A DNA stretch of 64,000 bases from assembly GCA_951406725.2 (NCBI GenBank), contig OX597814.1, positions 181,784,001 through 181,848,000 on the forward strand. The letters run 5' to 3'. The translations under genes were made by a program, and so were the position numbers. This document shows positions 1,851 to 55,090 of this stretch, one piece after another. The DNA is from Octopus vulgaris (lineage: Eukaryota). The notes beneath the pieces were generated by a model that was not told the DNA's origin, made no database searches, and worked only from the letters and a program-made list of their open reading frames with translations. The number at the start of each line of letters is the position of its first letter. Positions within the stretch are counted from its first letter, which is position 1.

Positions 1851-3760
1851 AAAGAAGTTTTGCATAAATCAGACCACGGGTTACCGAGATGCGCGGTTTT
1901 TACGGGTACCTTTATAAATAGCCAAACCGGCGTATAATGGGGGAAATGCTTTGAAAATAAGGTACCATTAAAATGTGAATACACACGGAATAACAGAAGT
2001 TTCGCGTAAATCGCATCACGGATTCCCGAGATAAGCGGGAGATTTTTCGGGCACTTTGAATTATTGGTGACCCGGCGGGTCACAAGTGGTCTAGTAATAC
2101 ATTAAAAGTCAGTTTGAATCTTGCTTGCTTGCTTGCAAAGTTACCCAGCCAAACTGACGCATAATGGGAAAATATTATTAAGTTTACCCAGAAATGTTAA
2201 TACGAACAGAACAAAACAAGTTTCGTGTAAATCGGACAAGTAGTTTTAAGAGATATTAGAGGTTTTTCGGATATAAATACCCAAAGTGGTGCATAATGGA
2301 AAAATGTTCCAAAAATAATCTTAATCCCGAAAGGGAAGAACTTTTTATCGTTCGATTAGACACAGTGACTTGACAACGAAAAAATACGAATTTTTTTACT
2401 TTAAATGTTTCTGTTTTCGCTTTTGTTAAACACAATATTCTAGAAATATTTTTAAGTGAATGTGATTTCAAAAATGTAAGTTGTTTGTGCAGTAAGTATT
2501 TATATTTTAATGACTTTTAAAGATATTTTCAAGTGAATACCATTACAAAAATTCTTTTTAGCATATTTTTAAAATATTTTTTAAGTGAAGATAACTTTAA
2601 AAATACGGTAAATATTTCGTAAAAGACCCGTTTGTAACCGCGGTGTGAAATAGTTTTTTTTTCTATAGGTTTTCTTCGAGTGCTTTCAACTATCTCACCC
2701 CCAAAGATTTGGGTGATATTTCTACCACATAACAGCTATTTGCGATTAAGGACCCAAAATACCTGCTACGTACTAGCAGGATGCGCAAGAAATAGCAACC
2801 AAATCTTTCCTTTTGTGAGGAAAGGAGCCGTTTACACGTGATTTTGATGTCACATTCGTTGAAAGCATTCGAAATAATCTGGAAAAGAAAAAAACCACGA
2901 AACCAAACCCGAACAGCCTGAGTGCCGGAGTTGCCACTGATATATATATATATATATATATATATATGTGTGTGTGTGTGTGTGTGTGTGTGTGTGTGTG
3001 TGTGTGTGTGTGTGTATTAGAAGGTTTGGAGATGATGTACAGGTATTATATATTAGAAGAAATGAGGTACTCAGAAATCCGGATGGTTTTATATTTACAG
3101 ATATTTATTAGTATGTTACATGTTTTTATACATCATATATCATATATTAGCGCTTTCGTCCATTCATGTGGAGTCTTCAAATTGAACTACGTTTTTGCAG
3201 GAATTTTGACTATTTTTATAGTATTATTGAGTGTGTAGTGGTGGGGAGAGATATAAGATAGTACAAGAGGGTGATGAATGGGGAGAAAGTGAGAGATAGC
3301 ATATGTGTGTGCGTGTGTGTGTATGTATGTGTGAGTGTTTTTCTATCTGAAAAAAGTGTTAAAGAAAAGGAAAGAAAAAAGAAAAGGGAAAGAAAGAAGA
3401 AAAAAATTTGTTGATCTCTTTGCAGCTGGTCAGGTTGTCAATAATCATCGATTTTTGGTCAGGTTGTCAATGATAATCGATTCTTGGCTTGTTTAATCCA
3501 GGGGGGGGGGGCAAAATGTAACTTTTCAAAAAATTGTCTGGATTTCCTTTTTACCAATTACCACCCATAAGGTGTATATTTATTATCTCTTGTGTGTGTG
3601 TGTGTGAGAGAGAGAGAGAGAGAGAGAGAGAGAGAGAGTGTGTGTGTGTGTGTGTGTGTTTGTATCTGAAAGTAGTGTTAAAGAAAAAGAAGGAAAGGAA
3701 GAAGAAGGAGAGAAAATTTGTTGATATCTTTGTAGTTGATCAGTTTGTCAATAATAATTC

Positions 3761-4006
3761 TTCACATGCAAGGAGAATTATATAGGTGAAACTGGAAATT
3801 CTTTATGCCAACGAGCCAGAATTCACCGACAACATGTCCGACAGGAGGAACTGCGCAAGATTCCTCTGAGTAAACACCTAGATACATGTGGAGAAGGAAA
3901 ATTTAAGATCTTTCCCTACTACAAATGTCCGAAGAATGACACCTCCTTCAGGAGGAATATGGAAAAATACTTCATAACAAAGTTCACCCCCAAATTGAAT
4001 GGCTGA
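3761..4006 (+). pseudogene. Penelope GIY-YIG endonuclease C-terminal fragment (open frame, not in ORF track)
   Basis: Manual translation: FTCKENYIGETGNSLCQRARIHRQHVRQEELRKIPLSKHLDTCGEGKFKIFPYYKCPKNDTSFRRNMEKYFITKFTPKLNG*. YIGET, R..H and E..FI...P.LN are PLE GIY-YIG hallmarks. Confidence 0.85.
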
Positions 4007-4099
4007 AAATATTTCTATAATAAGTTGTACTAGATGAAGGACTAAATTTGTAAAGTAAATTGTATTAAACACACATACGCACACAGCACTACACATATA

Positions 4100-4238
4100 C
4101 TCTTTTACTTGTTTCAGTCATTTGACTGCGGTCAAGCTGGAGCACCGCCTTTAATCGAGCAACTCGATCCCGGGACTTATTCGTTTGTAAGCCCAGTACT
4201 TATTCTATCGGTCTCTTTTGCCGAACCGCTAAGTAACG
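4100..4238 (-). mobile_element. SINE family A, 3' fragment nested in the PLE
   Basis: Reverse complement of the family A tail (...CCGCAGTCAAATGACTGAAACAAGTAAAAGAG). Confidence 0.85.
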
Positions 4239-5626
4239 TTATATGTACATATACATAAATAAAAATAATCTTTAATCCAGATTCTCCATCCCATGTCAGC
4301 ACACGAATCAAACATTGGATTGAAAGAACTAAACAGTAGTATAAATATCAACACAAATATTTCTTCTTCCCCTCTTTCTTCTTTTTCCCTTCTCCAACGA
4401 CACCCCTTCCAGATACACAGGCACCCACACACACACGCACACACACACACTCACAAAACAATGATAAAAAGAAATCCAGACAATTTTTTGAGAAGTAACA
4501 TTTTACTTGAAGTGGCCAGCTGAGTTAACCAATTTCTAAAAGCTACAAATCATTTACTATTGAAAGACTGACCAGCTGCAAAAATATAAACACATTTTTT
4601 TCTCCTTTCTCTCCTCCTCCTTCCTTTCATTCCCCTTTCCCATTTAACATTCCTTTCAGATACGCAGACACCCACACACACACATGCACACACACACACA
4701 CGCACACTCTCACAAGATAATGATAAAAAGGAAATCCAGACAATTTTTTGCTCCCCCTTTGAGTGACCAGCTGGTTTTACCATTGCTAAAAGCCAAGAAT
4801 TGATTGTTATTGACAAACTGACCAGCTGCAAAGATATCAACAAAATCTTTTCTTCTTTCTCCCCTTCTTCTTCCTTTCCTTCTCTCTTTTTCTCTAACAC
4901 TTCTCTCAGATACAAAAACACGCACACACACACACACACATACACACGCGCGCAAGCACGCGCATACACACACACACTCTCTTTCTCTCTCTCTCACACA
5001 AGACAATGATAAAAAGGAAATACAGACAATTTATTGAAAAGTGACATTTTGCCCCCCTGGATTTGCCATTACTAAAAGCCAAGAATTATTATGGACAAAC
5101 TGACCAACTGCAAAGATATCGACAAATTTTCTCTCCTTCTTCCTTTCCTTCTTTTTCTTTAACACCTCTTTCAGATCCAAAAACACACACACTTACACAC
5201 ACACACGCACACAGACACACACACACACACTCTCTCTCTCACTCAAGACAATGATAAAAAGGAAATCCAGACAATTTTTTTGAAAAGTGACATTTTGTCC
5301 CCCTTGGAGTAAACAGCTGGATTTGCCATTACTAAAAGCCAAGAATCGATTATTATTGACAACCTGACCAGCTGCAAAGAGATCAACAAAATTTTTTTTC
5401 TTTTTTCCCTTTTCTTCCTTTCCTTCTTTTTCTTTAACACCATTTTCAGATACAAAAGAACACACACACATACACACACAGACACATACACACGCACATA
5501 CACACACATGCTCTCTCTCACTTTCTCCCCATTCATCACCCTCTTGTACTATCTTATATCTCTCCCCACCACTACACACTCAATAATATTATAAAAAGAG
5601 TCAAAATTCCTGCAAAAACGTAGTTC

Positions 5627-5665
5627 AATTTGAAGACTCCACATGAATGGACGAAAGCGCTAATA
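5627..5665 (+). ncRNA. Minimal hammerhead-like fold in PLE pseudo-LTR (mirror copy at 3146-3183, minus strand)
   Basis: UUGAAGA (5630-5636), stem II UCCA/UGGA, GAAA (5653-5656), palindromic AGCGCU stem III, CUA triplet. Stem I is short. Confidence 0.5.
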
Positions 5666-53491: not shown

Positions 53492-53879
53492 GGAGGAAGC
53501 ACTCCGTCGGTTACGACGATGAGGGTTCCGGTTGATCCGAATCAGCGGAACAGCCTGCTCGTGAAATTAACGTGTAAGTGGCTGAGCACTCCACAGACAC
53601 GTGCACCCTTAACGTAGTTCTCGGGGATATTCAGCGTGACACAGAGAGTGACAAGGCCGGCCCCTTGAAATACAGGTACAACAGAAACAGGAAGTAAGAG
53701 TGAGAGAAAGTTGTGGTGAAAGAGTACAGCAGGGATCACCACCATCCCCTGCGGGAGCCTTGTGGAGCTTTTAGGTGTTTTCGCTCAATAAACACTCACA
53801 ACGCCCGGTCTGGGAATCGAAACCGCGATCCTATGACCGCGAGTCCGCTGCCCTAACCACTGGGCCATTGCGCCTCCAC
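53492..53879 (-). mobile_element. tRNA-SINE family C, full length
   Basis: Same family as 45336-45719. 10-bp TSD GTGACTTTAA (53482-53491, 53880-53889). Confidence 0.9.
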
Positions 53880-53899
53880 GTGACTTTAATAACTGTATA

Positions 53900-54141
53900 G
53901 TGGAGGCGCGTGGCTTAGTAATTAGAGTTTTGGACTCATGATCGTAAGATAGTGGTTTCGATTACTGAACCGGGCGACACGTTGTGCTCTTGAAAAAAAA
54001 CACTTCATTTCACGTTGCTCCAGTCAACTCAGCTGGCAAAAATAAGTAATCGTGCGACGGACCGGCGTCCCGTTCAGGTGGGGAATACATACGTCACAGA
54101 AACCGGTCCTATGAGTCCAGGATTCGGGAAGGAACTTTTCT
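53900..54141 (+). mobile_element. tRNA-SINE family D (CORE-like middle, V-domain-like 3' part)
   Basis: Head GTGGAGGCGCGTGGCTTAG...GGTTTCGATT. 3' part TGCGACGGACCGGCGTCCCGTTCAGGTGGGGAA shared with 24403-24705. 8-bp TSD ACTGTATA. Confidence 0.8.
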
Positions 54142-54239
54142 ACTGTATACAAGTTGTATGATGACAGGCGTAACCACGGTTAAGAAAAAGAACTTCTGTT
54201 TGTGTGCATGTATTGTACGTATGCATGATAAATGCTTAT

Positions 54240-55090
54240 CATTTATCTTTTACTTGTTTCAGTTATTAGACTGCAGCAATTCTGGGGTACCGCCTTTAAT
54301 AATTTTAGCCGAAAAAATCGACTCCAGTACTTTTTTTTTTGTCTCTCTCTTTTACAGAACCGCTAATTTATGGGGACGTAAACACACCAGCACCAGTTGT
54401 TAAGCGGTGGGGAACAAACAAAGACACACACACACACGCACACACAAACACACACATATATATATATATATATATATATTTATATATATATATAGAAAGG
54501 AAATGAAGATAATGCTGACAAAATAATTTAAGTAAGAGAGAGTGTATTTAATTAGGTGAAGTTCTTTTTACCGGTTGCGCATTTGTTATGCTTATCAAAA
54601 GATATTTTTTAAAGAGAGATAAACTTTCTTTCTGATAGATTTTTTTCTCTTATCTGGATAAGAGAAAAAAATCTATCAGAAAGGAAGTCTATCTCTCTTT
54701 AAAAATATCTTTTGATAAGCATAACAAATGCGCAACCGGTAAAAAGAACTTCACCTAATTAAATACACTCTCTCTTACTTAAATTATTTTGTCAGCATTT
54801 TCTTCATTTCCTTTCTTTATATATCACAACTCGTGTTCCACATCTCCTTTATATATATATATATATATTATATATATATATATATATATATATATATATA
54901 TATATATTATATATATATATATATAATCTCATGATGGGTTTCTTATAGTTTCCATCTACCAATTCACTCACAAGGCTTTGATCAGCTCGAGACTATATAG
55001 TAGAAGATACTTGCCCAAGGTGCCACGCAGTAGGATAGAATCCGAAACCACGTGGTTTAGAAGCAAACTTCTTACCACAAAGCTACGCCT
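54240..55090 (-). mobile_element. SINE family A split by a palindromic insert in its (TA)n
   Basis: 3' half 54240-54455, 5' half 54930-55090. Confidence 0.8.
54494..54850. mobile_element. Palindromic PLE-like pseudo-LTR pair in (TA)n
   Basis: Arms 54494-54654 and 54657-54816 are near-perfect inverted repeats. One-sided ~34-nt tail ending CATCTCCTT-(TA)n. Hammerhead-like UUGAUAA-GCAU-AACAA-AUGC-GCAA-CCGG-UA at 54712-54741. Confidence 0.8.

Follow-up and report, generated by a model that had tools for sequence, protein, structure and literature searches.

The window, i.e. the whole analysed stretch of 64,000 nucleotides from Octopus vulgaris (contig OX597814.1), carries hammerhead-like motifs at eight sites that are the 3' pseudo-LTR (pLTR) ends of six families of Penelope-like elements (PLE; families A to F) with thousands of copies. 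The insertion of family A (3017..5772) consists of an inverted 5' copy (about 3017-3760, minus strand) joined to a plus-strand body, is bordered by microsatellite at both ends, contains 250-nt subrepeats in its 3' UTR and matches itself in inverted orientation with 87% identity over about 530 nt. Its body includes the remnant of a Neptune-like GIY-YIG endonuclease (3767..4003, plus strand; recognized by tblastn and translation) that is 90% identical over 29 amino acids to the family A ORF of locus L267 and 43-48% to the ORFs of families C and E (tblastn). The motif of this insertion (5623..5669, plus strand; mirror copy at 3141..3187, minus strand) has a U3.G8 wobble, a C.C opposition at 10.1/11.1 and the palindrome AGCGCU; stem I is weak, and the fold z-score is +1.2. 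An older copy of family B (17298..17348, plus strand) retains G3:C8; its pLTR continues into the first ORF codons, not into (TA)n, and, given the change of G12 to C, its motif is likely to be inert.

Two further insertions follow: a 3' end of the Neptune-like family F (25266..25770, minus strand; 77-79% identical by blastn to the ORF-bearing loci L271/L273), the motif of which has decayed (25391-25364; U6, G8 changed to C), and a family C insertion with an internal inversion (25886..28680; identified by tblastn, and 82-90% identical by blastn to L268/L269), in which an RT segment (26764-27611, minus strand) is followed by RT, linker and GIY-YIG (27552-28595, plus strand). The family C motif (25998..26033, minus strand) shows U3.G8 in this copy, the palindrome ACCGGU and a stem I of CAG/CUG. 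The young family B insertion (33115..33482) consists of two pLTRs in mutually inverted orientation, bordered by (TA)n and with a tail at a single end; the best 40 scored copies match it at 99-100% identity. Its motif (33295..33344, plus strand; mirror copy with one palindrome change at 33197..33246, minus strand) comprises a stem I of 7 bp, the core stretch G3 U G A A C8 A9, an extra G, a stem II of 5 bp, GAAA, the palindrome AAUAUU and U17, with a predicted cut after position 33337 and a fold z-score of -3.6. Downstream lie a second 3' end of family F (37385..37520, plus strand; motif 37409-37436, C3:G8 with A6U), a 3' end of family D (37835..38037, plus strand) with a canonical C3:G8 motif (37913-37939, palindrome ACGU) and a young family E insertion (54495..54849), likewise made up of two mutually inverted pLTRs bordered by (TA)n, whose motifs at 54712-54741 (plus) and 54598-54569 (minus) combine U3:A8 with A13C.

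The original prediction had listed ten sites; the hammerhead pattern was confirmed at 5630 (plus) with its mirror at 3180-3148 (minus), at 17305 (plus), 26030-26001 (minus), 33302 (plus) with its mirror, 37409 (plus), 37913 (plus), 54712 (plus) and 54598 (minus), and at 25391 (minus). Eight of the ten are the family ends described above; the sites at 49908 and 50765 each matched only themselves, i.e. are single-copy, and were rejected as family motifs. Some details of the listed pattern had to be corrected: the copy at 17305 has lost G12, the GAAA given at 54712 reads GCAA throughout its family, A6 is replaced by U6 at 37409 and 25360, and the U:G state reported at 25998 is that of a minority, family C having U:A in 23/30 and U:G in 5/30 copies. 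Compared with 12 shuffles of the window, a strict descriptor matched once (37913; none in shuffles), a descriptor allowing any 3:8 pair matched twice (33302 and 37913; none in shuffles), one core mismatch gave 4 matches versus 1.3, and a descriptor without stem I was at chance level (21 versus 18.7). Few sites of the window thus beat chance alone; the others stand because of their family membership, the six family queries having returned 1,158-3,223 first-look candidates each in the genome search. An Rfam scan (E up to 5) listed no hammerhead families among 150 of 172 matches.

The assumed PLE origin was borne out by GIY-YIG/RT ORFs that lie upstream of the motifs, and share their strand, in families A, B, C, E and F: a single ORF with RT plus GIY-YIG at its C terminus precedes the repeat end. 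Family B has open frames of 1,025 (GIY-YIG Pfam match) and 839 amino acids, the ORFs of A, C, E and F are fragments, and family D is tied to an ORF only indirectly by its likeness to F (the D and F queries cross-match). The description of the families as unrelated did not stand: the C and E ORFs share 71% identity, that of A is about 36-40% identical to both, and D and F match each other; since the families are related, fewer independent events have to be counted. In our own tree the B group was placed apart from C and E. As judged by eye against a published alignment, the linker spacing suggests a Nematis-like B, its linker being short as in the Nematis rows, and Neptune-like families A, C, E and F, where it is long as in the Neptune rows.

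Partial tandems in which pLTRs flank the ORF at either end were found: in L363 and L365, and in truncated form in L361, the B motif precedes the start of the ORF, and it also occurs behind the ORF; a sister family of B contains two identical motifs 4.6 kb apart (L353, L354). There are two alternative 3' ends, followed by TA in 54/60 long and 25/27 short cases. Among the metagenome loci, of which the 3' regions of 10 out of 21 were covered, motifs occurred in L332-L335 and in the near-identical L338-L341, and no motif was seen in the 3' regions of L336 and L342. For a further family with U3:A8 (cl52), the one connection with B's sister family is a tail likeness noted by eye; none of 10 copies had an ORF nearby.

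The proposed link to (TA)n was substantiated: (TA)4 or more lay within 30 nt of 123/177 family ends (180 loci, 3 of them without a findable end) compared with 5.8% of random places. Family C ends are frequently (CA)n (TA 11/30; TA, CA or TG 27/30), a figure that is biased because the C query itself ended in CA. At 3017-5772, 33115-33482 and 54495-54849, inverted pairs stand between (TA)n, as would fit MITEs or DNA transposons that target TA and bear terminal inverted repeats, the hammerhead likeness being fortuitous. This explanation is highly improbable: the junctions differ among copies, many copies have no mirror, a tail sets the two ends apart, RT/GIY-YIG ORFs lie upstream, and PLEs typically have inverted 5' copies (PMC8557442). 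The copies are truncated or inverted at the 5' end and tailed at one end only; terminal inverted repeats fixed in all copies were not found, and the ORF linkage refutes the transposon reading. What the mirrors represent is PLE inversion at the 5' end and not terminal inverted repeats.

The natural 3:8 covariation that the window had suggested proved to be real. When a 994-kb sample was scanned blind, placing no constraint on positions 3 and 8, 25/28 matches had a Watson-Crick pair (C:G 9, U:A 11, G:C 5) versus 1.0 in shuffles (maximum 3 in 40 shuffles), and the three non-pairing matches were at the shuffle level of 2.5. The B-clade alignment was paired in 54/54 cells (stems I and III, which are not in register there, were left out), with CG 5, GC 3 and UA 2 at 3:8 and a covariation of 0.77 versus 0.26 in shuffled and at most 0.16 in slid alignments; stem II covaried too. 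Family B showed G3:C8 in 5,888 exact copies; the C3 form numbered 18, with no C3:G8 among them. The relatives of B have C:G and U:A on the same scaffold. The G:C spelling represents one family and one event. Family A is mainly a U.G wobble (22/30).

The core (U4 G5 A6 A9 G12 A13 A14 A15.1 U16.1 H17) was intact in 30/30 copies of family B and as the majority state in C, D and A; it was broken as the majority state in E (A13C), F (A6U) and the sister family of B (A9C). The copy numbers are 19,670 A6U versus 273 A6, 3,439 A9C versus 331 A9, and 1,959 A13C versus 0 A13; the fixation of these uncompensated changes in abundant families argues against a fast, required cleavage. All three stems, the third being palindromic, are clear in B, the C consensus, D and F, and stem I is reduced to 2 bp in A and E. 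Monomer folds of A, C, E and F were no better than those of shuffles, and the lowest-energy dimer of B leaves the AU-only palindrome unused. In the small sample of copies, 5' ends did not pile up at the predicted cut: ends within 5 nt amounted to 1/25 in B, 1/13 in E, 0/9 in C, 0/18 in D, 0/41 in F and 2/20 in A, the latter both low-complexity matches. Within families the core was hardly more conserved than the flank, a comparison that is uninformative either way because the copies decay neutrally.

The explanation that we favor, with a probability of roughly 0.62, is that the PLE 3' pLTR ends adjoining (TA)n carry minimal type I hammerhead motifs that retain the 3:8 pair in different spellings, are predicted to cut slowly as dimers and are probably helped by the protein of the element. 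The motif lies in the sense-strand 3' UTR behind the RT/GIY-YIG ORFs and, in tandem copies, once more before the ORF start; the GIY-YIG domain would nick AT-rich DNA, and reverse transcription from two internal sites would create the tail, as described for PLEs (PMC4209133, PMC11167929, PMC8557442). Selection may maintain the active-site geometry, so that the 3:8 pairing is kept, and a low required rate may explain why families with G3:C8, A6U, A9C or A13C still amplify. Given the altered core letters, RNA cutting by the motifs is likely to be weak or to depend on a helping protein; B, C and D appear to be the best cutting candidates, whereas the motifs of A and E are probably almost vestigial. 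Tentatively, the more specific proposal can be made that B is a natural, working and recently active G3:C8 hammerhead and that PLE hammerheads in general are protein-assisted with a looser core, the RT-EN protein rescuing G3:C8, A6U, A9C and A13C.

Appreciably less probable, yet the strongest competitor, is a motif of hammerhead descent that in most families no longer cuts and serves as a folded RNA handle for binding or positioning of RT-EN or for shaping the pLTR transcript. Such a role would accommodate A6U, A9C and A13C fixed in families of thousands of copies, the weak stem I of A and E and the cut site without 5' ends; moreover, 19/25 unselected B copies begin 42-66 nt upstream of the cut, and the majority therefore retain the whole motif. 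However, the 3:8 pair, which is established as part of the active-site fold (PMC8495972), stays Watson-Crick in three spellings, and U4, G5, G12, A14 and the U16 H17 site persist between elements with proteins that are only about 45-55% identical. Cutting might also be confined to the canonical families, the variants being decaying relics in which 3:8 pairing reflects few events and an AT-rich drift from C:G via U:G to U:A. The single clade of A, C and E, the U.G states in A and C, the restriction of G:C to one family and the missing resolution of the deeper tree forks agree with this account, which we nevertheless regard as improbable: G3:C8 takes two transversions, a C3:G8 form with B flanks was not found, stem II covaries in step, the non-pairing 3:8 matches of the blind sample remained at the shuffle level, and B and E are young (98-100% identity).

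Hammerheads are common across the PLEs although they act slowly in vitro and, in one reconstituted system, insertion did not need them. The octopus genome holds matched natural variants (C:G, U:A, G:C) on one scaffold, and A9 and C9 forms coexist in one family with open frames of 1,310 amino acids; a single set of assays could thus ask whether chemistry or shape alone is selected. With a natural G3:C8, the evidence from nature for a tertiary pair at 3:8 would be complete. If the proposals of a working B motif and of protein-rescued cores were true, one genome would provide a natural allelic series testing why PLEs retain an apparently unneeded ribozyme. In the octopus genome alone, motifs numbering tens of thousands escape descriptors that fix C3, G8, A6, A9 or A13.

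That the ribozyme-bearing system is new is not supported, as two papers (PMC4209133, PMC8557442) already describe PLE minimal hammerheads, U3-A8, a bias toward (TA)n, pLTRs in inverted arrangement and a PLE hammerhead from Octopus. The metazoan minimal hammerheads of Cervera and de la Pena (2014, PMC4209133), which include the U3-A8 variant of Schistosoma mansoni Cercyon, share with the present motifs the type I topology within the pLTR, the extra base between 9 and 10.1, G10.1-C11.1, the short palindromic stem III, mainly solo copies, opposite-strand pairs and a U3:A8 variant. In contrast to what is described there, the core of B is G3:C8, the extra base of the B clade is G (published consensus H), A6U, A9C and A13C are family-wide, and three 3:8 spellings occur on one homologous scaffold. 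The EN+ clades Neptune, Nematis and Hydra (Craig et al. 2021, PMC8557442) resemble the octopus families in the C-terminal GIY-YIG domain, the CX2-5CxxC linker, the (TA)n bias, inverted 5' copies and the single-end tail; the hammerheads tabled there (Chlamys and Hydra only, among them a canonical one of an Octopus Hydra element) are all C3:G8, unlike the variants found here. Natural U3-A8 covariation was also documented by Perreault et al. (2011, PMC3088659), along with an A6C core variant of low activity; such variants are rare cases there, whereas here they are the majority state of high-copy families. The small PLE hammerheads of Lunse, Weinberg and Breaker (via PMC6765202) are likewise PLE-linked, have a short stem III and cleave as dimers, and weak dimer cleavage is reported for minimal PLE hammerheads, one of which requires the protein of its element (PMC4209133, PMC11167929, PMC8557442). 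In the literature covered, which did not extend to the variant survey of Lunse et al., G3:C8 was encountered in laboratory mutants only. The Poseidon element PAc of Anolis (PMC11167929) shares two reverse-transcription starts that yield a tail and an AT-rich target, and in vitro insertion in that study could proceed without a PLE hammerhead; the motif of PAc overlaps the ORF start, whereas that of B lies >100 nt upstream. The C3G/G8C double mutant of PAc was partly active: the G3:C8 pair that was a laboratory construct there is the natural family state of B here.

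All motif positions named in the original prediction were found where it had placed them; six hammerhead-bearing families were distinguished: A (5630 and 3148), B (33302 and 17305), C (25998), D (37913), E (54712) and F (37409 and 25360). In the window alone, the strict descriptor retrieved solely 37913; admission of any 3:8 pair (the tertiary base pair of the hammerhead core) added 33302, with no match in 12 shuffles, and tolerance of one core mismatch gave four matches versus 1.3 in shuffles. After removal of the stem I requirement, 21 matches stood against 18.7 in shuffles; the bare pattern is thus at chance level. 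No hammerhead was present among the 150 of 172 matches listed from an Rfam search of the window. Genome searches provided 1,158–3,223 first-look candidates for each of families A–F, and the proposed sites at 49908 and 50765, which matched only themselves, were discarded as hammerhead family sites. The copies at 17305 (G12 missing) and 25360 (G8 missing) are likely inert.

It is nearly certain that the motifs derive from hammerheads of Penelope-like elements (PLE). In long copies of families A, B, C, E and F, a GIY-YIG ORF precedes the motif by approximately 0.8–1.3 kb on the same strand; the window itself contains an endonuclease remnant of family A (3767–4003) and reverse transcriptase (RT) and endonuclease parts of family C (26764–28595), and the open frames of family B (1,025 and 839 aa) gave a GIY-YIG Pfam match. 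Family D is connected to these only through its cross-match with family F. One of the element ORFs shares 57% identity with a publicly deposited protein annotated as Octopus. The 5' truncation point varies between copies, which are frequently preceded by an inverted copy. The region just 5' of the family B motif is a hot zone of truncation or inversion; 19 of 25 family B copies from unselected loci begin there, 42–66 nt upstream of the predicted cut. In loci L363 and L365 the family B motif is also found immediately upstream of the ORF, and L361 has it there in truncated form. In the sister family, a close relative of B, two identical motifs lie 4.6 kb apart, so that tandem transcripts can carry two. 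This sister family (L353:1337 and 5925; L354:1156 and 5751) is very young, with at least ten open frames of 1,310–1,312 aa, and its motif has an imperfect palindrome.

According to linker spacing, judged by eye, family B appears Nematis-like and families A, C, E and F Neptune-like. The families had been regarded as unrelated, which is contradicted by the 71% identity between the ORFs of C and E. The tree groups B with its sister family (support 99/99), the deeper forks being unsettled. Four relatives of family A (L220, L047, L203, L238) display compensatory stem II changes (UCC/GGA, UCU/AGA, CCC/GGG), and two of them read GCAA, as does family E. Other remnants in the window comprise a C-terminal fragment (50987–51346, minus strand) closely like the LINE-type RT ORF of locus L267, and broken frames (39637–40916, plus strand) resembling a DNA-transposon-derived protein, two parts of which gave no match in a Pfam scan. 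Fragments at 47656–48462 (plus strand) with a UvrD-like helicase C-terminal match below cut-off (E 8e-5) are presumably a Helitron/PIF1-type remnant.

Among the 30 best copies of each family, 3:8 was G:C in B (30/30), C:G in D and F (29/30 each) and U:A in E (30/30), while A contained U.G (22) and U:A (6) and C contained U:A (23) and U.G (5). The predicted natural covariation was borne out by a blind sample of 100 stretches at round coordinates (994 kb), searched with a descriptor composed after the families were known, in which positions 3 and 8 were free and the remaining core and stems required: 25 of 28 matches were Watson-Crick (U:A 11, C:G 9, G:C 5) versus 1.0 (maximum 3) in 40 local shuffles, and three were non-pairing versus 2.5. 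By eye, these matches represent about seven C:G families, four U:A and one G:C. The B clade shares a common scaffold (extra base, G10.1-C11.1, GAAA, short palindrome), on which C:G occurs in the sister family and four of five metagenome relatives (protein-related loci), U:A in the fifth and in the family cl52, and G:C in B. In an alignment of ten hand-chosen rows, whose three G:C rows are one family, 54 of 54 cells were paired, and covariation was 0.77 versus 0.26 when shuffled and at most 0.16 when slid. The change may have run from C:G to G:C. The G3:C8 19-mer of B has 5,888 exact copies genome-wide, its C3 version 18, all with unpaired C3.C8. Outside the window, further U3:A8 families (L211:7470, L210:7050, L194:8152, L184, L266; palindromes AAUU, ACCGGU, ACGCGU) were seen, and several canonical families in this set of loci, some with long stem II. 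In the single-copy metagenome relative L334:4973, U15.1 and A16.1 replace A15.1 and U16.1.

The association with (TA)n was confirmed: (TA)4 or longer lay within 30 nt of 123 of 177 family ends versus 5.8% of random places. Family B has two 3' end sites about 60 nt apart; TA follows 54 of the 60 long ends and 25 of the 27 short ones. Nicking of AT-rich DNA with internal priming has been reported for a PLE (PMC11167929). Another repeat family end (cluster 41; 5834–6014, plus strand) runs into (TA)n and had no hammerhead core by eye; a short family (cluster 61; 28848–29000, minus strand) is flanked by (TA)n runs, and a family end at 29148–29329 (minus strand), adjoining (TA)n at 29041–29066, has GAAA before CUGAAGA, i.e. 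a permuted order.

Where the motif sits, its arrangement in tandem and inverted copies, the association with TA and the covariation are observed. Beyond these observations we favor, with a probability of roughly 0.6, a hammerhead mechanism in which selection would keep the active-site shape at a low required rate, and two motifs, likely held on the RT-EN protein, would pair via the palindrome and cut after position 17. Minimal PLE hammerheads are reported to cleave weakly, as dimers (PMC4209133), and for one PLE the hammerhead's cleavage is reported to be protein-assisted and the hammerhead itself dispensable for insertion in vitro (PMC11167929). Simple, fast cleavage is spoken against by fixed core changes in abundant families, weak folds and 5' ends. 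Genome-wide, family F has U6 in 19,670 versus A6 in 273 copies, the sister family C9 in 3,439 versus A9 in 331, and family E C13 in 1,959 versus A13 in none; Perreault et al. treat these positions as invariant (PMC3088659). Stem I has 2 bp in families A and E; folding was clearly better than in shuffles only for B (z −3.6 and −3.3), with −1.7 for D and −1.1 to +1.2 for the remainder; predicted dimers had paired palindromes in A, C and E and unpaired ones in B; and 5' ends of unselected copies did not cluster at the predicted cut site.

A non-cutting RNA handle, with which these core changes might be reconciled, is a tentative alternative and rather unlikely beside the 3:8 pairing. That the motifs are decaying relics is considerably less probable. 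Mirrored pairs as terminal inverted repeats were rejected, the layout being that of an inverted PLE pseudo-LTR plus tail, both described PLE features (PMC8557442; PMC11167929); that the elements are MITEs is extremely improbable.

Published work already covers minimal PLE hammerheads with their extra base and palindromes, together with the U3-A8 pair (PMC4209133); the preference for (TA)n and a PLE hammerhead from Octopus have likewise been described (PMC8557442). Within the literature compared, G3:C8 was found only as a laboratory mutant; the C3G/G8C double change partially rescued activity (PMC11167929). A retrozyme preprint (10.64898/2026.07.22.740005) and PMC11014351 leave, as far as their compared content goes, our reading unaffected. 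Added here are the blind 3:8 test, the occurrence of the pair in three spellings on a single scaffold, and the core changes that lack compensation.
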